Counted from the first letter of the stretch, positions 4,491 to 32,000 are shown. The stretch is 32,000 bases of DNA from Acaryochloris thomasi RCC1774 (GCF_003231495.1 NZ_PQWO01000003.1:1-32000), one strand, 5' to 3'. Notes: generated by a model not told the origin, from the sequence alone. Made by a program: numbers and translations.

Positions 4491-7103
4491 ATGAGTGTAA
4501 TGTCTAACTTCTTTATAGATGAACCTAAAAAGCATAAGTCTTTTGAACTGGCGGGCGCGCGTCCCCACTACAACCCCGATCGCCCAGGTCAAGTCGAACA
4601 TATCTTTTTGGATCTTGCGTTAGATATTGATCAAAAGATCTGTGAGGGAACATGCCAAATTCGTTTGAATCCGGTTCGTAGCGGAATTACACAACTGGCG
4701 CTGGATGCGGTCAATCTCAATATCCAAGATGTACGCATCGGGAGGGCTAAGCAACCCTTTGATTACGACGATGAGCGTTTGGTGATTCATCTGAAGCAGG
4801 AGACAAAGGTGGGAAAGGCGATTACGGTTGCGATCGCATATTCTGTAAACCAGCCTCAGCGAGGTCTCTACTTTGTGGGACCGGAGCCCAACTATCCCGA
4901 CAAACCGACACAGGTCTGGACCCAAGGAGAAGATGAAGACTCACGTTTTTGGTTCCCCTGCTTTGACTACCCAGGGCAACTTGCGACCTCTGAGATTCGG
5001 GTGCGGGTACCGAAGGAATTCCTAGCGGTCTCTAACGGTGAGCTGGTGGAAACCAGCCTGGAAGAGAATCAGATGATCTACCACTGGCTGCAGAAGGAGA
5101 TTCATCCGACTTATCTGATGACGCTAGCGGTGGGAGAGTTTGCCGAGATTCGGGATGAATGGCAGGGCAAGCCGGTCCTTTACTACGTCGAGAAGGGCCT
5201 AGAGGACAGTGCCCGTTTGAGTATGGGTAAAACGCCTCAGATGATGGCATTTTTATCGGAAAAGTACGGGGTGCTCTATCCTTACCCCAAATATGCTCAG
5301 GTCTGTGTTGCTGACTTTATCTTTGGTGGGATGGAGAATACTTCGACGACGCTACTGGGCGATCGCTATCTATTAGATGAAAGAGCCGCCATCGACAATC
5401 GCTGGACAGAAAGTTTAGTCGTTCATGAGCTAGCCCACCAATGGTTTGGCGATCTGGTCGTGATCAAGCACTGGTCTCACGCCTGGATTAAGGAGGGAAT
5501 GGCTTCCTACTCAGAAGTGATGTGGACAGAGAAAGAGTACGGAGTGGATGATGCAGCTTACTACCGCCTCAATGAAGCGCGTAACTACTTCAATGAAGAT
5601 AGCAATCGCTACCGGCGGCCTGTCGTCACGAATATATATAGAGCGGCGATTGAACTCTACGATCGGCACATCTATGAGAAGGGGGCCTGCATCTACCACA
5701 TGCTGAGGGCTGAGCTAGGGGAAGATCTCTTCTGGAAAGCCATTCACACTTTTGTTCAGGACAATGCCCACAGTACGGTGGAAACTATCGATCTGTTGCG
5801 GGCCATTGATAAAGCGACGGGGCGGAACTTGGCGTTTCTTTTCGATCAGTATGTGTTCCGAGGGGGTTATCCAGACTATAAGGTTAGCTATAGCTGGGAT
5901 ACGGATAGTAACCTTGCGAAGGTGACGGTAAAGCAAACACAGGCAGATCCGAAAAAGCCGAAACACCAAGAACTCTTTGATCTCAAAATTCCGATTGCGT
6001 TCGGCTGGGTGAAAACTGCTGGGAAGAAGCCGCCTCAAGTGGAGCAGCAAACGTTTACGGTGCGGGTTCACGAAGCGGAGCAGAGTTTTTACTTGGTACT
6101 GCCCTCTAAACCTGACTTTGTCAGCTTCGATGCTGGGAATCATATTTTGAAGCAGGTGATGCTTGAGTATCCGGTACCAGAGTTGAAGACCCAACTGCAG
6201 CACGATCCCGATCCGCTATCTCGAATCAATGCAGCAGCAGCGTTAGTAAAGAAAGGTGGATTAGAGGCTGCTCAGGCCTTAGGAGAGGCACTGAAGAAAG
6301 ATACGTTTTGGGGTGTTCGCATTGAAGTGGCTCAACAGTTATCAAAGCTGCAGTTAGATCAAGCTCTGGATCTTTTGAAGGCAGGGTTGAAGGATGAGGA
6401 TGCACGGGTAAGAAGAGCGGTGGTAGATGCGATCGCAACTCTAAAACACGGCAACAGTTACAAACTTCTCAAACCCATCGCCGAGAAAGGCGACCCCAGC
6501 TATCTTGTCGAAGCCGCAGCCATTCGCGGTATTGGCACCTTAGCTGGTTCGGGCTTAGCAAACAAACCCAAGGAAGATAAAGTCATCAAACTCTTCAAGT
6601 CAGTGCTTAAAAAACGAGCGGGCTGGAACGAAGTCATCCGCTCTGGAGCCATTTCAGGTCTGAGTCAGATGAAGACCTCAACTGATGCCCTTGATTTGGT
6701 CTTAGAGCAGACGGTTTCTGGTACTCCGCAACCACTCCGTCTCGCCTCGATTCGAGCACTGGGAGCGATTTCAGCCGGACAATCACCCACAGATCTACAG
6801 CGGATTTTGGATAGTCTAAAAGCGATTTCAGGCGAATCTTTTTTCTTGACGCAAGTAGCCGTCGTCTCATCACTCGGACAAATGGAAACGCCAAAGGCCA
6901 TCGGCATTCTGCGAGGTCTTGCGAACCAAACCTCAGATAATCGAGTGGAGCGAATGGCAGAAGAGGCGATCAAAAAAGTACAGAAAAAAGTAGGCTCCGG
7001 TCAGGCCATTCAGTCTGTTCAGGAGGAGCTAGAGCAGCTCAAGAAAGATAACCAAACGCTCAAAAGCCGATTGGAGGAACTGGAGGCGAAGGCCAAGAAA
7101 TAA
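4491..7103 (+). CDS. pepN: M1-family aminopeptidase N with C-terminal HEAT (PBS-lyase-like) repeats
   Basis: 870 aa. Exopeptidase motif GGMEN and zinc motif HELAHQWFGD...WIKEG. C-terminal HEAT-like repeats (DPLSRINAAAAL, WGVRIEVAQQL, DARVRRAVVDAI) and a terminal coiled-coil. The start could instead be the ATG 3 codons downstream. Confidence 0.9.
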   Translation: MSVMSNFFIDEPKKHKSFELAGARPHYNPDRPGQVEHIFLDLALDIDQKICEGTCQIRLNPVRSGITQLALDAVNLNIQDVRIGRAKQPFDYDDERLVIHLKQETKVGKAITVAIAYSVNQPQRGLYFVGPEPNYPDKPTQVWTQGEDEDSRFWFPCFDYPGQLATSEIRVRVPKEFLAVSNGELVETSLEENQMIYHWLQKEIHPTYLMTLAVGEFAEIRDEWQGKPVLYYVEKGLEDSARLSMGKTPQMMAFLSEKYGVLYPYPKYAQVCVADFIFGGMENTSTTLLGDRYLLDERAAIDNRWTESLVVHELAHQWFGDLVVIKHWSHAWIKEGMASYSEVMWTEKEYGVDDAAYYRLNEARNYFNEDSNRYRRPVVTNIYRAAIELYDRHIYEKGACIYHMLRAELGEDLFWKAIHTFVQDNAHSTVETIDLLRAIDKATGRNLAFLFDQYVFRGGYPDYKVSYSWDTDSNLAKVTVKQTQADPKKPKHQELFDLKIPIAFGWVKTAGKKPPQVEQQTFTVRVHEAEQSFYLVLPSKPDFVSFDAGNHILKQVMLEYPVPELKTQLQHDPDPLSRINAAAALVKKGGLEAAQALGEALKKDTFWGVRIEVAQQLSKLQLDQALDLLKAGLKDEDARVRRAVVDAIATLKHGNSYKLLKPIAEKGDPSYLVEAAAIRGIGTLAGSGLANKPKEDKVIKLFKSVLKKRAGWNEVIRSGAISGLSQMKTSTDALDLVLEQTVSGTPQPLRLASIRALGAISAGQSPTDLQRILDSLKAISGESFFLTQVAVVSSLGQMETPKAIGILRGLANQTSDNRVERMAEEAIKKVQKKVGSGQAIQSVQEELEQLKKDNQTLKSRLEELEAKAKK

Positions 7104-7219
7104 TGTCACGGGTTGTGGAAGTGAGGTTTAGCTAGCGATAGCTCAAATCACGGCCTATACACAAAGACAAATTAAGCACGTTAGGGTGGAACTACAGCTT
7201 AAGGTGGAGGTCCATCCCT

Positions 7220-7948
7220 TTGTCTCCTAACGATCAGTCCCACCCCATCATTTACTTAGAAGAAATCACCAAGGTTTATGGTTCTGGTGAAACGACAGTT
7301 AATGCTCTAGGTGGGGTGGATTTAAAGATTTTACCCAGCGAGTACTGCTCAATTATGGGGGCTTCCGGTTCTGGGAAGTCCACCATGATGAATGTGATCG
7401 GCTGTCTGGATCGTCCCTCTGCAGGCCGATACGAGTTAGATGGTGTAGACGTTGCGCAGCTTGACGATGATGCGTTAGCCCTAATCCGCAACCGTAAAAT
7501 TGGTTTTGTCTTCCAGCAGTTTCACTTACTGAGTCAGGTCAGCGCCCTCGACAATGTGATGTTGCCGATGGTCTACGCCAATGTGCCGATACAAGAACGC
7601 AAGGAACGCGCCGCCCATGCGCTCAAGCAGGTGGGGCTAGAAGACAGAATGAATAATCGGCCCAATCAGCTTTCGGGGGGACAGCAGCAGAGAGTTGCGA
7701 TCGCACGTGCAATCGTCAACAATCCGGTCCTATTGCTAGCGGACGAACCCACTGGCGCACTAGATACCAAAACCACCCAAGAAATCCTGGGCATTTTTAC
7801 AGGCTTGAATGACAGCGGCATGACCGTCGTAATGGTCACTCACGAACCCGAAGTAGCCCAAAGCACCCAAAGAGTCGTTTGGTTCCGAGACGGCAAAGTC
7901 ATTCACAGCAACATGCGTCCCGAAGACCTACATCAAACCGCTTTTTGA
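7220..7948 (+). CDS. ABC transporter ATP-binding protein (MacB/LolD-like), no adjacent permease
   Basis: 242 aa. Walker [10 protein letters not shown], signature [14 protein letters not shown], Walker [16 protein letters not shown] start at 7220, preceded by the SD-like aaggtggagg (7201-7210). Confidence 0.88.
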
Positions 7949-8049
7949 GCATCAAGAACACCAGACTGGAATAGCCACGCAGGCCAGAGAGCAGGCACAA
8001 TAGCAAAGGAACAGCCGACGTAAAACTTCAAGCAGGATTCCATTGCTCG

Positions 8050-9477
8050 ATGACCACTGCCAACCCCTTTCTCAATCTTGACTATGAACCGGCATTAGAA
8101 TCTCTAGGAGATGACTATTTTGATCGAGTTGCGGCAGCAGAGTTCCCGCAGCACACTCTACGATTTCGTAACGATGACGTTCTGCAGCAGCTCGGACTCG
8201 ACCCTCAGCAGATCAGCGAGACCGACTTCATAGAAGCCTTTGGTCAGTTTCAAGCACGAGAACCCTTTCTAGCCCTCCGCTACCACGGCTACCAGTTCGG
8301 TGAATACAACCCCTGGCTCGGAGACGGGCGCGGGTTTCTTTACGGGCAGATTCGCGGTACCGATGGCGAACTCTATGATTTTGGCACCAAAGGTTCAGGA
8401 ACGACGCCTTACTCTAGAACAGCCGATGGCCGCCTAACCCTTAAAGGGGGCATTCGGGAAATTCTAGCGTCTGAGGCCCTGCACCATCTGGGGGTAAAAA
8501 CCTCCCGCTGCTTCAGTCTGATTGAAACGGGAGAAAAGCTATGGCGAGGCGACGAACCCTCCCCAACGCGATCAAGTGTGATGGTGCGGTTCAGCAAATC
8601 TCATATTCGATTTGGCACCTTTGAGCGTCTCTACGCCATTAAACGTCCCGACTTGATCCAAAAGCTGCTTGATCACGTCATCGAGATCTATTACCCACAC
8701 TTCGATAACCTAACCGATAAATATCTGCAGTTCTACACAGAACTTGTTCAGCGGACGGCTGAGCTGGCAGCCCAGTGGATGTCAGTCGGTTTTTGCCATG
8801 CGGTCCTGAACACCGACAATATGTCCATTACTGGCGAAAGTTTCGACTATGGCCCCTATGCATTCATTGAAACCCTAGACCTGAACTTCACACCAGCCTA
8901 CTTCGACTACTTTCGTCGCTACCGCTACAGCAACCAACCGTCCATGTGTAAGTGGAATCTAGAGATGCTGCAGCGCCCGCTCTCGACGGTCCTGTCCCAA
9001 ACAGAGATGGCTGTTAGTCTTGATACCTTTGACAAAACCTATCACGGCACCTACCGGCGACGAATGCTGCAAAAGCTTGGACTCGATGACAAACGTTGCG
9101 ATAGCTTCGATGCCCACGCAACCGACCAACTGCTCACGCTTACCCTAGATTTTCTCCAAAAAACACAGATTGGCTATCACACTTTTTTTGCTGAACTACG
9201 GCATCAGTTCAGCAGCCTGTGGTGTACTGATGCAGGCCATATTCTCAGGGAGTCTTCTTTGATAGCTGAATACTCAGCGCAGCTAGAAACCTGGCGACAG
9301 CTCTACAACCAACTTTTACAGAAAGATAAGCCCGAGAGCATACAGCAAAGATTAAAAAGCCATAATCCCTGCACTGTAATCACGCGCCCCACCATCGAAG
9401 CTGTCTGGGATCCTATCGCCATAGAAAATAACTGGCAGCCCTTCTACGAATTACTGGCTAGCCTGAAAAATCCGTAA
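8050..9477 (+). CDS. selO: SelO/YdiU-family protein adenylyltransferase (pseudokinase fold)
   Basis: 475 aa. Family-typical segments [46 protein letters not shown] and [21 protein letters not shown]. Confidence 0.88.
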
Positions 9478-19054: not shown

Positions 19055-19909
19055 CTACGCGGTTGTTTGCTCAGATCGACAGTGACCTTCACCTACGTGT
19101 CCGAGTCCGGCCAGAGCCGCGTCTAGCGCTTGAAAATCCTTCGAGTCTAGCTTTTGTTCGAGGGTGGCCCAATCCGCCTTTAGTGATGATCCATCTGCCA
19201 ATGCAGCCAGAGGAGCAAAGCCCAACGCCTTCACGTTCATCTCATCATCGGCGGGCAGTTCACCATCACCGAATACGTGGTCAAAATGGAAGGTGGCCTC
19301 TAGATCAGCGGCCCCACTGGGTTCAACGACGCCCTTGCGCTCATCGCCCACAAACTCTCCGCAGGTGTAGGCAAACTCGCGGTCAACGTTAAGCGTGAAA
19401 TCAACAGTTTTCCCGTCTTTACTGGCCTGACCCGCCAGCACTAAAGTCTGTCCCGCTGCGGGGCCATCTGTGGCCTTAGCCATCTTCCAGGCGAGAGCAT
19501 TGTACTGACCTGCTGGTGCTTCTGTTTCACCGACGGTAATCGGAGAGGCGCTTTCATCACCTTCAGCTAAGTCAACCATCTGCGCCGGAATCGTTACCTC
19601 AGATTTTGCCTGCAAGGGGTCTTCAGCGTCGGGGTCGAAGGGCGGATCAGTTTGATAAGCCGTTACGTCTTCTAAATTCACATAGACGTGATCAAAGCTG
19701 ATTTCCCAGCCGTCTTTTGAGGTAAACCCTTGGCGCACAAAGTCTTCACCATTGGCTGCAACCTGGAGCGTCCCAGCCCCTGCCTCGGCCTGCGCCCCCG
19801 AATCAGCAGGGCTTGAACTTTGAGACTCGTTTGATGACTGACAGCTCATCAGTAAGCCAGAGCATAGAGCAGTCGTTAAGATCAGCGATCGCGTAGACAT
19901 TAATTTCAT
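19055..19909 (-). CDS. lipoprotein of unknown function, first gene of the Ni/Co ECF operon
   Basis: 284 aa. Signal peptide with lipobox LLMSC, then a Ser/Ala/Gln linker. Acidic beta-rich body, with C-terminal GLGHVGEGHC. It ends 3 nt before the next gene. Confidence 0.6.
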   Translation of the reverse strand: MKLMSTRSLILTTALCSGLLMSCQSSNESQSSSPADSGAQAEAGAGTLQVAANGEDFVRQGFTSKDGWEISFDHVYVNLEDVTAYQTDPPFDPDAEDPLQAKSEVTIPAQMVDLAEGDESASPITVGETEAPAGQYNALAWKMAKATDGPAAGQTLVLAGQASKDGKTVDFTLNVDREFAYTCGEFVGDERKGVVEPSGAADLEATFHFDHVFGDGELPADDEMNVKALGFAPLAALADGSSLKADWATLEQKLDSKDFQALDAALAGLGHVGEGHCRSEQTTA

Positions 19910-23498: not shown

Positions 23499-26396
23499 AT
23501 GGCAGAAATAACACTCATCTGGCGAGTCTTAATTCTCTGTAGCGCTTGTTTCTTAATCGGTGGCCTACCGGTACCGAGCTGGGTTACCCGTATCTTGACC
23601 GGGAAGCGACTCTCTAAACTGGGGACTGGCAATGTCAGTGTCTCTGCCGCGTTCTATCACGGCGGCAAACCGGCAGGAATCCTGTCTGCACTTTCAGAGG
23701 CAGGGAAAGGGATTGCCGCAGTCTTGTTAGCCCGACAGCTATTTCCAACGATGCCTGCTTGGGAACTTTGGGGCTTGTTAGCGCTGGTTCTCGGTCGCAA
23801 TTTGATTGGGGGTGGGGCCGGGGCAACGAATACCTTTTGGGGATTTTGGGTTCATGACTGGGTAATGAACCTGATTTTTGTCTCTGGGGGTTGGGTGAGC
23901 TTTCACCTAGTGCGAAATCGGAAGAGATCGCAACTCATAATCCTCGCTTTGATGCCTATTGTCGTCGCCCTCCTGAGTAGAGACGGATCTAGAGTAATCG
24001 CTATGATGATGCTCAGTGGCTTTCTGGCCTGGACGTTCCTTCGTAAACCGGATGACTTAGAAATGTCAGCAACTCAGGGAAAATCTGACAAGATGCTGCG
24101 GTGGATGCAGCGAGATCGCAAACCTCTCTCTCTTAACCAGCAATTGGACACCCCTCAGGTGGGTCAAAAAGCGGCGACACTCGCTCAACTCAAGCAGTGG
24201 GGCTATGCGGTGCCGGACGGCTGGGTGCTCCCCGTCAACGGAGATGCGAAAGCTCTGATGGCACAGATTCAGTGCTCACCCGAACAGCCCGTCGTCGTGC
24301 GATCCTCAGCGGTCGGTGAAGACTCTGAAGAAGCTTCAGCGGCAGGGCAGTATGAGTCGATTTTGCATGTCATTAGTCAGGGGGCGTTGGGGGATGCGAT
24401 CTCAACTTGCCTCAGTTCTTACAACAGCGAAGGTGCTCAACAATATCGGCAGGACCGCCAGCTCACGGAAACCGCCATGGCCGTCCTCGTGCAGCAACAG
24501 GTGCAGGGCGTTGTCTCCGGCGTTGCCTTCAGTCGAGACCCGATTGCCTGTCAGGGATCAGCAGTCATCATCGAAGCATTACCAGGAGACGCAACTCAGG
24601 TCGTATCAGGACAAGTAACCCCAGAACAGTATCGGGTTGAGATCCAGGATCGAGACTGGAGCGACATCGATAGCGATCAGCTTCCGGCTATGACAGAGCA
24701 GGTTGTTCTGGGCATGGAAGGGAGTGGTGAAGTTTCGACGCAGATTATTCAACAGGTTGCGGTTCTGGCCCGCCACCTCGAATCTCGCTATCACGGCATT
24801 CCTCAGGATTTGGAATGGAGCTTCGATGGTAAAACGCTATGGCTACTGCAGGCGCGACCCATCACCACCCTTTTACCGATTTGGACTCGCAAGATTGCCG
24901 CCGAGGTGATTCCTGGGGTGATTCGCCCCCTGACTTGGTCCGTCAATCAACCCCTTACCTGTGGTGTCTGGGGTCAGATTTTCTCCATTGTGTTGGGGGA
25001 TCGCGCTCAGGATCTAGACTTTGGTCAAACGGCGACGCTACACCACGGCTATGCCTATTTCAATGCCTCTCTCCTGGGTGAAATCTTCCGGCGGATGGGT
25101 TTACCTCCTGAAAGCTTAGAATTCCTCACCCGAGGCGCAAAGTTTAGCAAGCCTCCCATCCGGTCAACCCTGATCAATATTCCAGGGTTACTGCGGCTCG
25201 TACAGCGGGAACGACAGCTCCTGCAAGACTTTCAGGATGACAACACAGACCGATTCCAACCCGCCCTAAAGAACTTCCAGCAAGAACCCACCGAAATGCT
25301 GAGCGCTGAGCAATTGCTATCGCGAGTAGAACAACTGCTGGCGTTGCTGGAGCAAGCAACCTACTACAGCATTTTGGCTCCTTTGGGTTTTGCCGCCCGT
25401 CAGGCGCTCTTCAAAGTTCAAGACTCAGATCTCAACAACGACAGTTCACCAGAGGTGACTTCGTTACAGGACATCCGCAGCTTGGCAGCCGTCACCCCAA
25501 AGGTCGCAGCAACCGATCAGAACTCACTTTTTGCAGCCTTAGCCACAAGCACAGAAGGGCAAAGCGTTCTAACTCAGCTAGAACAGCTAATTGATCGCTA
25601 TGGCTATCTCAGCGAAGTGGGGACCGATATCGCCGTCCCCACCTGGAAGGAAGATCCCAGTCCTGTCCGTGAATTATTCACTCAGTTTTGTCTGTCTCCA
25701 CCGACAGCGCCTCAGAAGACCGTTACCTCAAGCAACTGGAAAACGAAGCAGGTCCAGAAACGCCTGGATCTCAAAGGACAAGTTACATCGGTCTACAGTC
25801 AGTTACTGGCCCATCTACGATGGTGCTTTGTGGCCCTAGAAGATCAGTGGCGGCAGTCTGGAGTATTAACAGATACCGGCGATATTTTTTACTTAGAACT
25901 TAACGAGGTTCAACAGTGCGTGGCTCAAACAATAGCGCCAGAGAGAGTTGCAGAAAGGATTCACCAACGCAAGCAGAATTTTCATCAGATCTCCCCCCAA
26001 GCGCCCTTCTTGCTTTACGGGAAAAATCCTCCGATGCCATTGACGCCCACCAAAATCTCAGCGGCGAAAATGATGCAGGGGATTGGCGTTAGCGCTGGGC
26101 AGGTTGAAGGCCCTGTTAAGGTGCTACTAAATTTCAAGGCTGGGGTTACTAACCTTGATCCCGCCACAATTTTAGTGGTTCCCTACACTGATTCTGGCTG
26201 GGCTCCCCTCTTGGCCAGAGCCGCAGGACTGATTGCAGATGTGGGTGGCCGACTGTCCCACGGTGCGATTGTGGCCCGCGAGTACGGCATCCCTGCCGTG
26301 ATGGATATTAATCAGGCGACGCAACAACTGCAGGATGGTCAGATTGTGCGCATAGATGGGCAACGGGGCACTGTTGAGCTGGTGGATGGCCCTTGA
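23499..26396 (+). CDS. fusion protein: PlsY-like membrane domain + PEP/pyruvate-binding ATP-grasp domain + phosphohistidine swivel domain
   Basis: 965 aa. Residues 1-190 resemble PlsY (LIGGLPVPSWVTRILTGKRLSKLGTGNVSVSAAF, KGIAAVLLA, several TM helices). Residues ~215-470 resemble the PPDK_N domain (VGQKAATLAQLKQWGYAVPDGWVL, VVVRSSAVGEDSEEASAAGQYES, DLEWSFDGKTLWLLQARPIT). The C-terminus is a PEP-utilizer mobile domain (ILVVPYTDSGWAPLLARAAGLIADVGGRLSHGAIVAREYGIPAV; His921 at 26259-26261). Confidence 0.85.
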   Translation: MAEITLIWRVLILCSACFLIGGLPVPSWVTRILTGKRLSKLGTGNVSVSAAFYHGGKPAGILSALSEAGKGIAAVLLARQLFPTMPAWELWGLLALVLGRNLIGGGAGATNTFWGFWVHDWVMNLIFVSGGWVSFHLVRNRKRSQLIILALMPIVVALLSRDGSRVIAMMMLSGFLAWTFLRKPDDLEMSATQGKSDKMLRWMQRDRKPLSLNQQLDTPQVGQKAATLAQLKQWGYAVPDGWVLPVNGDAKALMAQIQCSPEQPVVVRSSAVGEDSEEASAAGQYESILHVISQGALGDAISTCLSSYNSEGAQQYRQDRQLTETAMAVLVQQQVQGVVSGVAFSRDPIACQGSAVIIEALPGDATQVVSGQVTPEQYRVEIQDRDWSDIDSDQLPAMTEQVVLGMEGSGEVSTQIIQQVAVLARHLESRYHGIPQDLEWSFDGKTLWLLQARPITTLLPIWTRKIAAEVIPGVIRPLTWSVNQPLTCGVWGQIFSIVLGDRAQDLDFGQTATLHHGYAYFNASLLGEIFRRMGLPPESLEFLTRGAKFSKPPIRSTLINIPGLLRLVQRERQLLQDFQDDNTDRFQPALKNFQQEPTEMLSAEQLLSRVEQLLALLEQATYYSILAPLGFAARQALFKVQDSDLNNDSSPEVTSLQDIRSLAAVTPKVAATDQNSLFAALATSTEGQSVLTQLEQLIDRYGYLSEVGTDIAVPTWKEDPSPVRELFTQFCLSPPTAPQKTVTSSNWKTKQVQKRLDLKGQVTSVYSQLLAHLRWCFVALEDQWRQSGVLTDTGDIFYLELNEVQQCVAQTIAPERVAERIHQRKQNFHQISPQAPFLLYGKNPPMPLTPTKISAAKMMQGIGVSAGQVEGPVKVLLNFKAGVTNLDPATILVVPYTDSGWAPLLARAAGLIADVGGRLSHGAIVAREYGIPAVMDINQATQQLQDGQIVRIDGQRGTVELVDGP

Positions 26397-26409
26397 ATGA
26401 ACAAGAGGG

Positions 26410-26445
26410 GATGCGATGGTCTCCGACCGGCCTTCGGCCATCGCA
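26410..26445 (+). repeat. 36-nt dispersed hairpin repeat, intergenic copy (terminator-like stem-loop)
   Basis: gatgcgatggtctccgaccggccttcggccatcgca begins 14 nt after the stop of the 965-aa gene. gcgatgg pairs with ccatcgc and the inner ccga pairs with tcgg. No U-tract follows. Confidence 0.8.
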
Positions 26446-26661
26446 ACGAAAACCGCTGGTCACCCCAAAAGCTGCCAACGCCGCTCTCACAGAAACTCTG
26501 AGCACGATCGTATACACCGTTAGCTCTAGCCAAAACTTTAAAGCTGGGCGGATGTAGAACTCTCAAGTCCTCAAGCAAAGTGCTGGACTTTTCTCCAGGC
26601 AAGCATTTTCTGCAGCAAATGCATCACTAATTATCCCAGAGAGATAAAAAGAGTTAGGGTT

Positions 26662-28149
26662 TTGTATCCTTACTTTCAGAACTGCAGTGCTTCCAGGTCA
26701 TTAAGGGAACCTAAGTATGTGGTGATCCTTATCGTTTTAGTGAAACAATTAGGGCTGAAACCATTCACTTTGCATTCTGGAACTGGTGTGGGTACAGCCT
26801 CAAGGTATTGGCAACTGGTAAGAATTGATGCCTCTGGTCAGAGAAGGGTTGATAGGATTCAAACAGCCTATGATTTCTTTCAGGAAGTCTTTGGCTCACA
26901 GGTCCAGGTGGATCAAGTCGCAGATGCGACGGTACAAAGCAAACTGATTCAATTTTGGAAGACGACCCAAAATTCTTCTCCGGCAGAGTGGTGTCTGCGT
27001 TGTTTTATTTCTAACGTGATTGACCAAGCCTGCGGGCAGTTAGAAACGCAGTTTGGTCGTCATCATGGCTTTAGTCGCTATGACCTGTTCCCCTTTGTCC
27101 TCAACGACAGTTACCCACCCCCAAGGCAGTTTCAGGGAAACTATCAATCCCTGGCCAGCCAGATCTTACAGACTTTTAAGCCTGAGAACGGTAGCCTAGT
27201 GACCTGGACCGTGCGGCGGGTACGTTGCGATCGCAACCTCAACAAATTTCTGCTAGAACACGGCATTTATCTGGTCAGTGACTGGGCAATCCTAAACGAC
27301 ACCTCACTTCAGCAGGTGGAGCGAATCCTATCAGAATTCCACAGCGCCACGGCCAGCGAAATCAAGCAGGCAATGGATCTTTTAAGCCGATATCACGCAG
27401 TCTACAGACGCGATCGCATCCAAAGGCGGCAGGCAGGGTTGAAGGGGCGTTGCTCAGAACCCACCGCAAACCAACTATCTCAAATAGCGGGTTCGGCAAC
27501 TGAAGCAGGCGTGATTCTAGCCCAGCTTCAGAGCCTTGCCGGACAGCTGCGTCGGTATCGAATCCATGCCCGAGGGGGACCAGCTCCGACAACGTCTCTA
27601 GATCAGCCCACGAATGAAAAGGGGCAGCTCCCGCAGCTTGCGGCTCCGGTCCCCGATCAGGCTGAAGATGAGCAGAACGCTTTTTTGACCCGCTACCGAG
27701 AGCAGTTCCGCCTCAGCTTAGATGAGGCGATCGGACAAATTCTCCGAAAGCAGCTTGAGTCTCGCAAGCCCCGTACAGCCGAGCAATTCCTTCAAGCTCT
27801 GTATCTGTTTCACTGTCGCGGACAGTCGATGACAGAGATTGCCCCCCAGGTGAATCTAAAGGCTCAGTATCAGGTCTCACGGCTGTTGAAGCTCAAAGAC
27901 CTCCGGGCCGATATTCGCCGTCAGGTGCTGCTAGATTTGCGCGATCGCGTGCTTCAACAAGCGAAGGTCTACGCAGATCCAAATCGTCTGCAGCAGCTCA
28001 ATGGTCAACTGGATACAGTCTTAGAAGAACAGGTTGAAGAGGTGATTCAAGAAGCTGCAGCCGAAGCCAGTGTTCCCCGAAACCGCCCTATTCGGAGTCT
28101 GTATGCCCGCAGGCTGTGTCAGGACCTAGACCAGAGGATAGAGAAATGA
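26662..28149 (+). CDS. divergent sigma-70-like / HTH protein (first gene of the CHAT-CHASE2 operon)
   Basis: 495-aa ORF with no in-frame ATG in the first ~230 codons. Candidate starts are TTG 26662, GTG 26719 (aaggga 10 nt upstream), GTG 26740 and TTG 26770. ILQTFKPENGSLVTWTVRRVRCDRNLNKFL parallels sigma region 2.3/2.4 (xKFDPxxGxxFSTYAxxxIR). GQSMTEIAPQVNLKAQYQVSRLLKLKDLRADIRRQ looks like a region-4 HTH. The stop overlaps the next start as ATGA. Confidence 0.55.
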   Translation: MYPYFQNCSASRSLREPKYVVILIVLVKQLGLKPFTLHSGTGVGTASRYWQLVRIDASGQRRVDRIQTAYDFFQEVFGSQVQVDQVADATVQSKLIQFWKTTQNSSPAEWCLRCFISNVIDQACGQLETQFGRHHGFSRYDLFPFVLNDSYPPPRQFQGNYQSLASQILQTFKPENGSLVTWTVRRVRCDRNLNKFLLEHGIYLVSDWAILNDTSLQQVERILSEFHSATASEIKQAMDLLSRYHAVYRRDRIQRRQAGLKGRCSEPTANQLSQIAGSATEAGVILAQLQSLAGQLRRYRIHARGGPAPTTSLDQPTNEKGQLPQLAAPVPDQAEDEQNAFLTRYREQFRLSLDEAIGQILRKQLESRKPRTAEQFLQALYLFHCRGQSMTEIAPQVNLKAQYQVSRLLKLKDLRADIRRQVLLDLRDRVLQQAKVYADPNRLQQLNGQLDTVLEEQVEEVIQEAAAEASVPRNRPIRSLYARRLCQDLDQRIEK

Positions 28150-29441
28150 CTGATATCTTCTCTGAATTAGTGTCAGATTTTGCGGTGGTGCAACCGCAGG
28201 CCATTGAACTCAAAGAGTCGCAGATTGAGCAGGCACTGCAGTGGAGTCAGGTTGCGACGAGTGAAGAGCAACAGTGGCAGCTTTATTTGCAGGGGCTGGC
28301 CTTGCAAAACTTTGAGCAGTGGCTTCAGACCCGAGACTCAGCGCTATCGGTACAGCGGATTCGGGGTTCCTTGCCTTCAGACGTTCCGTTTTTGCCCGCC
28401 GTCATGCTGGAGGTTGATCACTTCCGGCTCTGTTTGCTGATCAACGGTAGCTTGAGCGATACCCAAGTGACTGTTCCGCAGGCGGTAGTGGACCTGCCAG
28501 CATTTACGGCTCATATTTATGCACTAGTAGAGGTTCAGGAGGAACTCGATCAGAGCGTCGTAACGGCTTGTATGCGCCACGATCAGTTAGCACAGCAAAT
28601 AGCGACCCTCAAACCGCAATTGGACTGGTCTTATACAGTGCCGAGGAACTGGTTCAATTCGAGTCCCGATGATCTATTACTGTGGCTGCGTTGTCTTGCT
28701 CCAGAAGCTATTCCACTAGCTTCAACAATAGAGAGTAGCTCAAGACAAGTTGATTTGGAGCCACTACTGTCTCAACTGAAAACCAGCAAGCATCTATGGC
28801 AGGTGCTCAATTGGGAACAGGCGGCTGCCGTTCTGCAGAATAGTGAGCAAACTAATTGGCTACAGCGGGCGCTCCAGTCTCGTGATTTTGTCATGCAGGC
28901 ATCAGAAGCGATGGAGAATTTGGCATCAAGCCTCAACCCCATCAATACAGCCTTATGGTTACAGCAGACTGTAGAGAACTGGACAAGAGCCTGGGTCTTA
29001 GTGCCGTCTCTGGCCCTGCGGTCCAAGACTTCAGAGATGGAGCAGCCGGAGGAAATTTCAGTTCTGATCAGTGAACTGCAGCATCAGGGCGTTGAGATCC
29101 CAGCGACAGCGGCGGGGGCCTATCGAGATTTATCGCTAGGCTCAGCACAATTGCGTCTCTCCATTGTGGTGTGGTCTTCTGAAGCTGAATGGACTCTGCT
29201 GCTGCTTTTGGGACCGCAGCCCAAGACAGAACTCAGCAATACAGTGCGGCTACAGATCTGTGATGCAGACAAAATGCTGACGGACCTCACGCTGAGTCCA
29301 GAGAACCAGGAAACGTGTCTCTATTCAATGGTGAGTGGTGCTTTGGATGAGCAATTCTGGGCGACATTGATCCTAGAGCCTCCAGATCCGCAAACGATAA
29401 TGAAGCTGGCTCCCTTTAGGTTTGAGCCACCGCAGTCATGA
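28146..29441 (+). CDS. DUF1822-like protein
   Basis: I place the start at ATG 28146 (MTDIFSEL), which overlaps the upstream stop 28147-28149. The ORF track's 28116 is an upstream alternative. QQWQLYLQGLALQNFEQWLQ, LEVDHFRLCLLINGSL and AHIYALVEVQEELDQSVVTACM resemble the conserved DUF1822 blocks as I remember them. Confidence 0.6.
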   Translation: MTDIFSELVSDFAVVQPQAIELKESQIEQALQWSQVATSEEQQWQLYLQGLALQNFEQWLQTRDSALSVQRIRGSLPSDVPFLPAVMLEVDHFRLCLLINGSLSDTQVTVPQAVVDLPAFTAHIYALVEVQEELDQSVVTACMRHDQLAQQIATLKPQLDWSYTVPRNWFNSSPDDLLLWLRCLAPEAIPLASTIESSSRQVDLEPLLSQLKTSKHLWQVLNWEQAAAVLQNSEQTNWLQRALQSRDFVMQASEAMENLASSLNPINTALWLQQTVENWTRAWVLVPSLALRSKTSEMEQPEEISVLISELQHQGVEIPATAAGAYRDLSLGSAQLRLSIVVWSSEAEWTLLLLLGPQPKTELSNTVRLQICDADKMLTDLTLSPENQETCLYSMVSGALDEQFWATLILEPPDPQTIMKLAPFRFEPPQS

Positions 29442-31828
29442 GTGTGCGCCAGACCTATCGACTGAAGGTACAGCAGGTTGAGCAAGCTTGCCTTTTCGAT
29501 TTGTCTTGGGGCAAGGGGCAGCAGTTGTCGGCCCAGGTTAGCTATCCTGAGGCATTGGAGGCGGCTTATGCAACCTGGGTTCGCTGCTATCTTTTCTTTT
29601 ATAAGAACCTCTCTCTTGATGCAGCAACGGAACTAAGGGGAAAGCTGAAGGCAACGGGACGGATTACGCCTGTGGGTGTGGACTGGCAAGCTGAGCTGGT
29701 GCAGGCGGAGGCGGAGCTACTGCAGCAACTCCATCACTGGCTGCGGAGTGCGGAGCTGTATGAAATTCGGTCGGCTATTCGACAACCGGCTGATCTGTTA
29801 TTGGTCTGTGAGCCATTATCACTCGCACGGCTCCCCTGGGAAATGTGGGATTTAGGCAACGTCAGGATTGCTCGCTGTCCGGCAAATGTAAGGGCTACAA
29901 GTAATAGGTCACCTCACCAACGGCGGCGAGTGAGGGTGCTAGCGATTTTGGGGGATGAGAAAGGGCTCGATTTTGCTGCAGATCGCGCTGCGGTAAAGGC
30001 TCTAGCACCGAAGGCAGAGGTACAGTTTGTGGGCTGGCAGCCAGGGCTATCGATTCCTGAATTAAAGCGGCAAATTTGTGATGCGATTTCAGACCCTCTA
30101 GGCTGGGATATCTTGTTTTTTGCGGGCCACAGCAATGAAACAAACTTGACGGGAGGGGAACTTGCGATCGCACCCAACACCCTGATCACGATTAAGGAAA
30201 TTGCCCCCCACTTAAAGCAACTGCAGGAAAAAGGGCTGCAGCTTGCTATTTTCAATTCATGCAGTGGTTTGAGCATTGCGATCTCGCTGATTGACTTAGG
30301 CCTTAGTCAGGTTGCTGTGATGCGAGAGCCGATTCACAATCGGGTGGCACAGGTTTTTCTAGGCCGGTTCCTTAAGCATCTGAACAGTTATCAAGATGCC
30401 CATGATGCGCTATGTTCTGCGGTGGTGGGTCTGCAGCACGAAGAGAACCTTTCTTATCCATCGGCACACTTAATTCCTTCGTTCTTTCGCCACCCAGAGT
30501 CCAAGCCTTTTCGGCTACAGCCGATGGGGATAAGACAGTACATTCGACCTTGGCTACCCACGCGTCGAGAAGCTGTTACCTTGGCCATCCTCATTGTGTT
30601 GAGCTTATGGCCTTCACTGCAACGAACCTTGTTAGACCAGCGCATTCTGGCCCAGTCCGTTTATCGGATGCTCACAGATCAGATACCGGCTCAAACGACG
30701 CCACCGCTGACACTTGTACAAATTGATGATGCTTCTATTCAAAAGGCAGGCATCCGGGATCCAAAGCCGATGGATCGGGCTTATCTAGCTAAGCTGGTGG
30801 ATCGATTGGTCGCGCATAAAAGCCAGGTTATTGGAATTGATTATCTATTGGATCGTCAGCAGCCTCAATCGGATCCACTTTTAGCGTCTGCAGTTCGGTC
30901 TGCGGTTGCCCAACAAAATACTTGGCTCGTTTTTGCCTCAACAATACAACCCAATGGTTTAGAAATCGGGGTTAATCCGAAGACCGAGATTGCATCACCG
31001 ACTTGGAGCCTGCAAGCACACATACATGGTCAACCCACTCATATCGAGTTGCCTAGGGATGATTGCCGTCAAGCCTGTCCGTTCGCATATCTCATTGCGA
31101 TGTTGACGGCATATCAAGAGAATGGAACGGGTCTAGTGGGGCCTAGTCTAGAGAATAAGAAAAAGTTAAAATCGCATTTTCTCAATGATGCTCAGCAACT
31201 CTCAGAGCCAAAGCTTGACTTTATTCAGAAGCAACAACAAGCTTGGCTTTCACTTGGTTCTTACTATTTAAAACAGCAGTGGCTGGACCCAATTCTAGAT
31301 TTTTCGATACCACCAGAGCAGGCCTACCAGAGTATTCCAGCTTGGCAACTGCTAGCGACGAAGCAGGAAGAGAACTTGTCTTCAGTAGTAATCGTGGCTC
31401 CTGGCGGGTATAAAGAGGCTGGAGTCAATCAGTCTGATAACTTTGCAATACCTTTGGCTCTGCAGTTTTGGAGAGCATCTTTATCTGAGAATGATGGGAA
31501 TTTGGACAGAGCGGTTTTTACGGGCGGGGAGGCACATGCCTATATGGTGCATCATCTTCTGCAGAAACGCTTGGTGATTCCGATTCCAAATTTATGGATG
31601 GTTTTGCTGATGTCGTTTTTGGGAAAGGTAATCAGCTTAAGATGGGGTTATTCGCGACCTATTAAGTGGTGGCAAATACTTGGGGTGGGAACGGGTACAA
31701 CAGGTATTTATAGCCTGATTAGTTTACAGGGATATCTTTCAGCATCGGTTTTGTTTCCGGTTTTACTGCCGTCAATGACGGTTTTACTTTATCTTTTACC
31801 GCTTAGGGGTAGGCGTAATCATGGATAA
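29438..31828 (+). CDS. CHAT (caspase-like protease) domain fused to a CHASE2 extracytoplasmic sensor domain; membrane protein
   Basis: 796 aa. CHAT motifs LARLPWEMW, DILFFAGHS (His231, 30128-30130) and LAIFNSCSG (Cys275, 30260-30262). TM helix AVTLAILIVLSLW. CHASE2-type start LTLVQIDDASIQKAGIRDPKPMDRAYLAKLVDRLVAHKSQVIGIDYLLD. C-terminal TM cluster (LWMVLLMSFLGKVISL, ILGVGTGTTGIYSLISL, VLFPVLLPSMTVLLYLL). The ATG overlaps the upstream stop as ATGA. Confidence 0.82.
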   Translation: MSVRQTYRLKVQQVEQACLFDLSWGKGQQLSAQVSYPEALEAAYATWVRCYLFFYKNLSLDAATELRGKLKATGRITPVGVDWQAELVQAEAELLQQLHHWLRSAELYEIRSAIRQPADLLLVCEPLSLARLPWEMWDLGNVRIARCPANVRATSNRSPHQRRRVRVLAILGDEKGLDFAADRAAVKALAPKAEVQFVGWQPGLSIPELKRQICDAISDPLGWDILFFAGHSNETNLTGGELAIAPNTLITIKEIAPHLKQLQEKGLQLAIFNSCSGLSIAISLIDLGLSQVAVMREPIHNRVAQVFLGRFLKHLNSYQDAHDALCSAVVGLQHEENLSYPSAHLIPSFFRHPESKPFRLQPMGIRQYIRPWLPTRREAVTLAILIVLSLWPSLQRTLLDQRILAQSVYRMLTDQIPAQTTPPLTLVQIDDASIQKAGIRDPKPMDRAYLAKLVDRLVAHKSQVIGIDYLLDRQQPQSDPLLASAVRSAVAQQNTWLVFASTIQPNGLEIGVNPKTEIASPTWSLQAHIHGQPTHIELPRDDCRQACPFAYLIAMLTAYQENGTGLVGPSLENKKKLKSHFLNDAQQLSEPKLDFIQKQQQAWLSLGSYYLKQQWLDPILDFSIPPEQAYQSIPAWQLLATKQEENLSSVVIVAPGGYKEAGVNQSDNFAIPLALQFWRASLSENDGNLDRAVFTGGEAHAYMVHHLLQKRLVIPIPNLWMVLLMSFLGKVISLRWGYSRPIKWWQILGVGTGTTGIYSLISLQGYLSASVLFPVLLPSMTVLLYLLPLRGRRNHG

Positions 31829-32000
31829 GAATCGTGGGCTTTTGCTGGCTTTATTATTAGTCGTAGGGGGTGCTGAGCTTGGAGCTGCTCAACCAAAGAA
31901 AGAGGACTCTAACTCGAAGCCAAGACCAGTTAAGGTCCAGAATCAGAAGTCTTCCAGCAAGTCTCGCTCATTAATTAAGGGCATTATTCACGTTATTTTT
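31821..32000 (+). CDS. secreted protein, 5' part only (runs off the window end)
   Basis: My own translation from ATG 31821 gives MDKNRGLLLALLLVVGGAELGAAQPKKEDSNSKPRPVKVQNQKSSSKSRSLIKGIIHVIF. That is a signal peptide followed by a Lys/Ser-rich linker. It overlaps the stop of the CHAT-CHASE2 gene (31826-31828) by 8 nt and is open to position 32000. Confidence 0.6.
   Translation, partial: MDKNRGLLLALLLVVGGAELGAAQPKKEDSNSKPRPVKVQNQKSSSKSRSLIKGIIHVIF

Follow-up and report, generated by a model that had tools for sequence, protein, structure and literature searches.

A cyanobacteria-wide four-gene cassette joining a CHAT-CHASE2 membrane protein to a putative divergent sigma-70-like protein and a promoter-like motif

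Control of sigma factors by CHAT proteases has, to our knowledge, been demonstrated so far only within CRISPR type III-E, and whether the same logic could serve a membrane signalling pathway is the question raised by four genes (g1 to g4) at 26662-32000 in a 32,000-nt stretch of Acaryochloris thomasi RCC1774 DNA, referred to here as the window. They encode, in order, a sigma-70-like protein, a DUF1822 protein, a membrane protein with CHAT and CHASE2 domains and a protein with a signal peptide. We read the region as a single operon for a cyanobacteria-wide signalling cassette, driven by a dedicated promoter-like element at 26620-26646; with the mechanism proposed below included, this picture has about an even chance of being correct. 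The cassette is abundant, coherent and, by virtue of its promoter motif, experimentally tractable, while its central mechanism is one that we infer.

The four open reading frames (ORFs) occupy the plus strand (26662/26788..28149, 28146..29441, 29438..31828 and 31821 onward past the window end), and the overlapping stops and starts reported in a preliminary description of the region are exact in both sequence and position: ATGA at 28146-28149 joins g1 to g2, ATGA at 29438-29441 joins g2 to g3, and an 8-nt overlap, ATGGATAA, joins g3 to g4 at 31821-31828. Related loci (prefixed L below) were gathered through g2 (13 genome loci) and g1 (80 metagenome loci), together with contigs bearing exact homologues, to a total of 98, and were scored with hidden Markov models (HMMs) built from the window's proteins. 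The arrangement recurs in these loci far beyond chance. Among evaluable loci, g2 follows g1 in 71 of 74, g3 follows g2 in 34 of 41 (83%, median gap 60 nt) and g4 follows g3 in 35 of 38, so that the quartet, whose synteny the preliminary description had proposed to survey across cyanobacteria, keeps its order; on these counts g1-g2 is the tightest unit and g3-g4 the next. All three overlaps persist both in the closely related L014 and in Synechococcus sp. PCC 7336 (the quartet with overlaps being present in that Synechococcus and in a JGI contig), and the 8-nt junction of g3 with g4 is shared by different orders, the Nostocales among them. There the g1/g2 and g2/g3 overlaps give way to gaps, some of which hold an inserted gene or an additional promoter motif. 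The earlier proposal that the overlaps fix the stoichiometry of the products thus holds best for g3/g4, the other two being lineage-specific. Four loci carry a gene insertion of 2.9-4.4 kb between g2 and g3, identified by Pfam as a secreted TPR-CHAT protein in all three cases examined. Frequent neighbours across the 98 loci are TPS exoprotein genes (in 14) and further CHAT genes (in 25).

The domain assignments of g3 are confirmed. It matches Pfam CHAT (PF12770) at residues 94-339 with 38.9 bits (cutoff 24, E 9e-10) and CHASE2 (PF05226) at residues 383-727 with 66.3 bits (cutoff 26.3, E 4e-18), both above the gathering score and both as first proposed. The caspase-type dyad is likewise intact, with H231 and C275 at the residues originally named and invariant in eight orthologues of 44-79% identity. 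Hydropathy agrees with the succession of CHAT, transmembrane (TM) helix, CHASE2 and C-terminal TM cluster in the preliminary description, placing TM1 at about 378-398 and the cluster at 716-790, and stretches rich in Arg precede TM1 and occur at the C-terminus. Because of this hydropathy and these stretches, the CHAT side is predicted to be cytoplasmic and CHASE2 external; g3 would therefore reside in the cytoplasmic membrane, its N-terminal domain and CHAT on the cytoplasmic face and CHASE2 on the periplasmic one. A conserved 93-residue region precedes CHAT in all g3 orthologues, an HMM of it matches every g3, and it is a candidate EACC2 domain. Pfam detects no TPR in g3, and its architecture is constant, always with CHASE2, in the loci retrieved through g1.

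The assignment of g2 to DUF1822 (PF08852) is secure, its match extending over model positions 1-361 of 370 (116.4 bits, cutoff 25, E 2e-33), and g2 is 100% identical to NCBI protein C1752_01132; neither TPR nor TRADD_N was detected in it by Pfam. Its AlphaFold2 (AF2) model, built from 17 sequences with a predicted local distance difference test (pLDDT) score of 75, comprises an N-terminal alpha/beta domain, a flexible middle of low confidence at 247-301 and a C-terminal beta-sandwich. Within this middle region falls the motif W-x-L-L-P-x-x-A-[LM]-R-S at residues 283-293, in which W283 and R292 are each conserved in 100%, and P287 in 99%, of 70 non-redundant orthologues. The positions directly after it, 294-299, are occupied in only about 40% of those orthologues and form a variable-length insertion. 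The surroundings of R292 are, on this pattern of conservation, a possible recognition, docking or cleavage site.

Although only its first 60 codons lie inside the window, g4 opens with MDKNRGLLLALLLVVGGAELGAAQP, a Sec-type signal-peptide-like sequence that bears out the signal peptide assigned to it at the outset. These 60 residues have no Pfam match, and the full-length protein was taken from the contig L014 (88% identical; g4 of 252 aa); orthologues are of 233-260 aa and beta-rich. The suggestion that full-length g4 be checked for DUF928 (PF06051) met with a divided result, L012 lying marginally above the cutoff of 26 (26.5 bits) and L010 (19.5 bits, E 0.0009) and L014 (15.5 bits, E 0.015) below it. 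As g4 is translationally coupled to g3 through the 8-nt overlap, and given the predicted topology of g3, it is likely to be exported and to be a periplasmic partner of CHASE2. A CHASE2 and DUF928 pair also occurs with a different cytoplasmic module beside the cassette in L019 (JGI contig Ga0613639_000034, 14894-19464), where an AAA_35+CHASE2 gene, an HTH_VMAP-M9+AAA_35 gene and an additional DUF928 gene are found, and this suggests that DUF928 proteins may be general periplasmic partners of CHASE2. A TPS-domain exoprotein gene (934-971 aa) converges on the end of g4 in L014, the window's closest relative (6141-8945, minus strand), and in Synechococcus sp. PCC 7336 (L017, 15254-18169, minus strand), and a converging gene of this kind is likely just past the window end.

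The gene product on which the regulatory interpretation turns is g1. The preliminary description had placed its start at TTG 26662, which is corrected here to GTG 26788: a 453-aa database protein from Acaryochloris thomasi is 100% identical from that codon, and homologues, which begin M(G/T)xS(K/R)YW, align from it as well, so that TTG 26662 is probably an ORF-finder artefact. The family is large and compact: clustered at 90% identity it yields at least 965 groups, and at 50% identity (E up to 1e-3) 558, as against 17 relatives found for g2 by word-based search. Its members are nearly all stand-alone proteins of 440-500 aa annotated as 'hypothetical', and every organism name given by the sources is cyanobacterial. 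An AF2 model built from 60 homologues (pLDDT 87) is wholly helical and has a disordered linker over residues 271-290, and when it was compared by Foldseek with 350,542 PDB chains the eight best matches were all sigma factors, led by E. coli sigma-32 (8hkc_E, E 0.03, Foldseek probability 0.97) and followed by Thermus, Mycobacterium and Synechocystis SigA, in alignments of 340-390 columns that cover both halves of the protein. Alignment of the family profile with hhalign matched g1 residues 126-181 weakly to E. coli RpoH 89-136 (E 0.46), residues 334-368 to E. coli RpoE 142-176 (E 0.074), and region 4 to a profile of six E. coli sigmas (E 0.065). The first of these segments contains F-x-P-x-x-x-S-L-x-T-W, which fits the signature of sigma region 2.2/2.3, and L137 and W140 are invariant among the 60 homologues. 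Nothing in Pfam matches g1 itself; its sole NCBIfam match is a weak one to CAS_III-E_sigma (E 0.03), and TIGR02937 is weakly matched by 6 of 60 family members. Taken together, the Foldseek, hhalign and NCBIfam results indicate that g1 is probably a very divergent member of the sigma-70 family.

A bipartite promoter-like motif, TGCATCACTAATTATCCCAGAGAGATA, precedes the start of g1 by about 140 nt. It was found by cross-locus k-mer enrichment in g1 upstream regions, and its general form, TGCAT-N15/16-AGA-NN-TA (consensus AAAAtTGCATAAc-N10-CcAGAAATAtA), is new in this analysis. The window holds this sole match in 32 kb, against 0.07 expected, with a position weight matrix (PWM) score of 19.0 versus 6.0 for the next best site, and L014 carries the motif with one mismatch. 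One such element upstream, and none inside the operon, supports the single-operon idea put forward at the outset. In roughly 1 Mb of loci plus the window there are 122 non-redundant regular-expression instances (121 in related loci); the PWM matches, a distinct set, come to 128, where composition-matched shuffles give about 3. The distance between the half-sites peaks sharply at 15 nt (94 cases) and 16 nt (32 cases), with 2-10 cases at 13, 14 or 17 nt. Since the motif is asymmetric, fixed in spacing and directed toward genes, it has the features expected of a promoter for a dedicated sigma factor. Three further k-mers were rejected as regulatory motifs, TCAAAATA and AAATACTGG being coding sequence of the conserved g1 N-terminus (G-T-A-S-K-Y-W) and GCGATCGC the ordinary cyanobacterial HIP1 repeat.

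The genes that lie behind the motif extend beyond the cassette. A same-strand ORF starts within 350 nt downstream of 102 of the 122 instances, namely g1 in 50, g2 in 10 (where an intergenic gap is present), g3 in 2, a secreted (TPR-)CHAT protein in 11, a TPS protein in 1 and others in 28. Most of these 28 open with signal-peptide-like sequences, and the ten that were scanned with Pfam all gave assignments (three subtilases, three TPR proteins, two RTX proteins, one of them with FG-GAP repeats, one pentapeptide-repeat protein and one Tll0287/HAMP protein); a further motif-led subtilase occurs in L010. Non-homologous genes for exported proteins are preceded by the motif at L001 9994 and 16203, L005 10415, L010 12621, L028 3267, L041 5600 (minus), L027 8512 and L048 6360 (minus), their products being TPR-CHAT proteins, S8 subtilases, small TPR proteins and RTX and FG-GAP proteins. 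A variant specific to one lineage, TGCATAGGTC-N11-CTGAATCATA, is common to the TPS, RTX and g1 promoters of L019 (1437, plus; 8831, minus; 8931, plus), the downstream half-site having been altered jointly at all three. The motif thus argues for a single operon transcript in the window, and its distribution suggests a putative, autoregulated regulon of exported proteins.

Gene identities (DUF1822, CHAT, CHASE2 and signal peptide), conserved order, an intact dyad, a shared upstream motif and the topology signals are the observations from which a mechanism can be proposed. CHASE2, together with the co-translated and exported g4, would sense an extracytoplasmic cue, while the sigma-like g1 would be held or modulated by its neighbour g2. 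The cue would switch on the cytoplasmic CHAT protease, which would then cut g2 or g1. Many clan CD proteases accept Arg at P1, and a candidate cut in g2 therefore lies after the invariant R292 in the PxxA[LM]RS motif beside the variable linker; in g1 the candidate is the flexible linker that follows the conserved RGGxxPTxSLD. Freed g1 would direct transcription from TGCAT-N15/16-AGAnnTA promoters, its targets being its own operon, by positive autoregulation, and in related genomes the adjacent secreted TPR-CHAT, subtilase, TPS, RTX and TPR genes. The putative chain in which CHASE2-CHAT would cleave the DUF1822 or sigma-like protein, already suggested in the preliminary description, gains plausibility from its likeness to Craspase and CalpL; release of g1 by a sensor-protease onto motif promoters, argued from such analogy and from the motif distribution, is in our estimation evenly poised between right and wrong. 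More tentative, and the weaker side of even, is the joint proposition that g1 founds a new divergent sigma-70 group confined to cyanobacteria with its own promoter code, controlled by a membrane caspase-fold protease that senses through CHASE2 and a DUF928-like partner and having secreted proteases and TPS/RTX exoproteins as its output.

Several observations weigh against release of a sigma-like g1 by the protease. The Foldseek values for g1 are borderline (E 0.03-1.4) with low TM-scores (0.15-0.30), and its region-2 and region-4 segments, which align in the correct order, do so without significance (E 0.065-0.46). The Pfam sigma models (Sigma70_r2/r4), which the preliminary description had expected to match, match neither g1 at E 0.1 nor any of 60 relatives at E 1, so that g1 falls outside the Sigma-70 family by formal HMM membership and its earlier description as sigma-like draws weak support from Foldseek (E 0.03) and hhalign (E 0.07-0.46). 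Searches by phmmer with E. coli RpoE and RpoH gave no match in any ORF of the loci, g1 included, and PDB sequences searched with the profile of the g1 family yielded no sigma factor; the endoglucanase matches of the latter search arose from a DWxILND word and were rejected as chance. Foldseek of the g2 model returned generic Ig-like beta-sandwich matches only, with no TPR, anti-sigma domain or Csx30. No sequence scanned for the motif is more than about 10 kb from a g1 gene, the loci having been picked by proximity to g1, and the motif figures apply to these loci; moreover, the motif geometry is itself sigma-70-like, and a housekeeping or group-2 sigma factor could read it with g1 as activator. 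Finally, g1-g2 occurs without g3-g4 in 7 of 41 loci (L024, L028, L044, L072, L090, L005 and L006), in two of which (L072 and L090) a secreted CHAT protein of 1,547-1,664 aa follows g1-g2 in place of g3-g4, and g1 occurs without detectable g2 in 3 of 74 (L051, L054 and L058), so that the protease is not obligatory nearby.

The rival that survives best gives the cassette a role in conflict rather than in environmental signalling. As proposed by Kaur et al. (2021), EACC2 plus caspase would sense an invader stimulus through a variable C-terminus and be activated by autoproteolysis, and the sigma factor would run an immune or suicide programme, the function then being counter-invader immunity or programmed cell death. 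The neighbourhood is listed with such a hypothesis in their survey of conflict systems; g2 evolves much faster than g1 (17 versus 965 relatives), which fits an arms race; secreted proteases and TPS/RTX exoproteins of the kind linked to the motif are often weapons; and 25 of the 98 loci hold extra CHAT genes. Set against this, PADLOC defence models match none of the three proteins, the window neighbours of the operon are housekeeping genes within a composition profile that bears no island signature, an extracytoplasmic CHASE2 sensor is badly placed for detecting phage inside the cell, and g3 is constant rather than variable in architecture in the loci retrieved through g1. We consider a conflict function unlikely, though it deserves more weight than the two explanations that follow.

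Slightly less probable is that g1 is not a sigma factor at all but a helix-turn-helix (HTH) regulator, a scaffold or a protease substrate, with the motif an ordinary sigma-70 promoter plus activator site or the site of an unrelated regulator. Beyond the silence of the Pfam sigma models, the Pfam/NCBIfam scan turned up sporadic, weak HTH matches among 60 relatives of g1, of which those to the GntR-type PhnR (12) and HTH_18 (9) outnumber those to sigma models (6). With its length of 453 aa and its long additional helices, g1 also differs from the 190-aa extracytoplasmic function (ECF) sigmas, and the motif combines TTGCAT with an A/T-rich downstream element at about -35/-10 geometry. Opposed to this are the exclusively sigma-factor character of the eight best Foldseek matches, extending over both halves of g1, the region 2.2/2.3 signature, and the single orientation, asymmetry and fixed spacing of the motif, which are typical of sigma recognition and not of a dimeric regulator site.

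Least probable of the three is a pair of separable modules with a common regulon, g1-g2 being a self-contained switch and g3-g4 an independent sensor-protease whose substrates are other proteins, such as the TPR-CHAT or TPS proteins while they are being exported, or else g3 itself: the loci with g1-g2 alone, the insertions that part g2 from g3, a separate motif copy before g3 in 2 loci and the CHASE2 and DUF928 pair with the AAA_35 module in L019 would fit it, but g3 closely follows g2 in most evaluable loci, all four genes overlap both in the lineage of Acaryochloris and in that of Synechococcus PCC 7336, and Kaur et al. find EACC2-caspase recurrently beside DUF1822 whatever the C-terminal domain.

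Table 1. Features of the four-gene region, with positions counted from the first nucleotide of the window
Feature	Position	Strand	Basis
Bipartite promoter-like motif TGCAT-N15-AGA-NN-TA (TGCATCACTAATTATCCCAGAGAGATA)	26620..26646	+	about 140 nt upstream of g1 start
g1, putative divergent sigma-70-like / HTH protein, 453 aa	26788..28149	+	identical database protein, homologue N-termini, AF2, Foldseek
g1 sigma region 2.2/2.3-like segment, residues 126-181 (ILQTFKPENGSLVTWTVRRV...)	27163..27330	+	hhalign against RpoH, weak
g1 sigma region 4.2-like helix-turn-helix, residues 334-368 (FLQALYLFHCRGQSMTEIAPQVNLKAQYQVSRLLK)	27787..27891	+	hhalign against RpoE, NCBIfam
g2, DUF1822 protein, 431 aa, cytosolic, without TM segment	28146..29441	+	Pfam, identical protein, synteny, AF2
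g2 motif W-x-L-L-P-x-x-A-[LM]-R-S, residues 283-293 (WVLVPSLALRS)	28992..29024	+	70 non-redundant orthologues
g3, membrane protein, 796 aa: N-terminal domain 1-93 (EACC2 candidate), CHAT, TM1, CHASE2, C-terminal TM cluster	29438..31828	+	
Codon of catalytic His231 of g3 (FFAGHS)	30128..30130	+	position checked, orthologue alignment
Codon of catalytic Cys275 of g3 (FNSCSG)	30260..30262	+	position checked, orthologue alignment
g3 CHASE2 domain, residues 383-727, predicted extracytoplasmic	30584..31618	+	Pfam, hydropathy
g4, signal-peptide protein, first 60 codons, continuing beyond window	31821..32000	+	translation, orthologues

A scan of 26300-32000 for consensus promoters and terminators gave no excess over shuffles, Rfam and tRNA scans of the window found nothing, and exact-sequence look-ups of g3, g1 (P0001) and P0012 returned no record. 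Immediately upstream of the operon, a 965-aa ORF (23499-26396, plus strand) has an unusual architecture in which a PlsY-like glycerol-3-phosphate acyltransferase membrane domain (residues 17-179) is fused to phosphoenolpyruvate-utilising enzyme domains, with PPDK_N at 260-458 and the mobile domain at 887-957 by Pfam. A 284-aa ORF (19055-19909, minus strand) without a Pfam match lies within a run of minus-strand ORFs for an ABC ATPase, CbiQ and an FGGY-like kinase.

If release of a sigma-like g1 by the protease is correct, CHAT-sigma logic would extend to an ordinary and very common cyanobacterial membrane signalling pathway, and functions would be assigned to four orphan families, namely the g1 family, DUF1822, DUF928 and CHASE2-CHAT. 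Were the more tentative joint proposition to hold, the cassette would represent a way of signalling across the membrane that is new for bacteria and would be the equivalent of Craspase outside CRISPR, with control not exerted by the usual site-1/site-2 intramembrane proteolysis; should g1 not be a sigma factor, the locus is a well-conserved neighbourhood that has already been catalogued. The motif makes a vague genomic association testable, by way of a predicted start near 26655, a predicted secreted-protease regulon, the predicted catalytic residues H231 and C275, and the candidate cleavage motifs.

How the cassette stands to systems already described can be considered in turn, beginning with the closest. 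Kaur, Burroughs, Iyer and Aravind (eLife 2021; PMC8195603) defined a class of proteins in which an unvarying EACC2 domain of alpha+beta type at the N-terminus is combined with a caspase and a variable C-terminus, CHASE2 with TM helices being one form of it, and listed an EACC2-caspase-CHASE2 neighbourhood with DUF1822 and 'ECF sigma'. Their supplement gives for Fischerella the order '?? -> DUF1822 -> EACC2+CASPASE+CHASE2+TM+TM -> TM+beta_rich -> TPRs+CASPASE', the upstream gene being marked only '??' or 'HTH' in some rows, and their general logic is similar, in that a stimulus acts on the caspase and the caspase on the sigma factor. The gene order in Fischerella is the order found here, and the DUF1822 and sigma/HTH neighbours are encountered in both. 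Their systems differ in being computational only, without a promoter or regulon; DUF1822 is called a TPR protein by these authors, whereas the AF2 model of g2 is alpha/beta plus beta-sandwich, and variable C-termini are stressed, whereas the loci linked to g1 uniformly carry CHASE2. In the literature searched, no later mention of EACC2 in this sense and no experimental work on the cassette was found, and DUF1822 and DUF928 otherwise appear only in passing. The original remark that no characterised function is known for this gene combination therefore still stands in that literature, but the combination is not new, having been catalogued and described computationally with a similar hypothesis in 2021.

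Among cyanobacterial proteins, HetF is a cytoplasmic CHAT-family protease needed for heterocyst differentiation in Nostocales, and it resembles g3, as read here, in being a cytoplasmic CHAT protease of a regulatory pathway. It differs in that it is not known to have a CHASE2/TM architecture or linked sigma-like or DUF1822 genes. A signal-activated protease that cleaves a partner holding an ECF-like sigma is also found in the CalpL-CalpT-CalpS system of type III CRISPR (SAVED-Lon protease, anti-sigma and ECF sigma), in which CalpL cleaves the anti-sigma CalpT and frees CalpS; CalpL is, however, a Lon and not a CHAT protease, its trigger is cytosolic cyclic tetra-adenylate (cA4) rather than an extracytoplasmic cue, and there is no homology to g2.

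The cassette is neither Craspase nor a classical ECF/anti-sigma pair. In RpoE-RseA-DegS/RseP and FecI-FecR, an extracytoplasmic cue leads through proteolysis to sigma release, and the sigma factor autoregulates its own operon; the substrate in classical pairs is a membrane-spanning anti-sigma, cut by serine and site-2 metalloproteases. The logic from cue to proteolysis to sigma, and the autoregulation, are those proposed for the cassette, yet g2 is soluble, has neither a TM segment nor a match to anti-sigma families in Pfam and NCBIfam, and the protease would be a caspase-fold enzyme that is anchored in the membrane and carries a sensor domain of its own. In type III-E CRISPR, the TPR-CHAT protease Csx29 cleaves Csx30, a protein of N-terminal domain, linker and beta-rich C-terminal domain that binds RpoE (PMC10028731). 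With this Craspase (Csx29/Csx30/Csx31/RpoE) the cassette would share a CHAT-family Cys protease encoded alongside a sigma factor and a sigma-binding substrate, with cleavage as the signalling step, and the one NCBIfam match of g1, weak though it is, is to the III-E sigma model. The cassette departs from it in having no Cas7-11, CRISPR RNA (crRNA), TPR or Csx31 (PADLOC gave no match, g3 has no TPR, and no Cas genes are among the window ORFs scanned), in a g2 without detectable sequence or fold similarity to Csx30, and in a g1 of 453 aa that is far from RpoE; where Craspase is activated by RNA, activation here would come instead from the membrane, through CHASE2.

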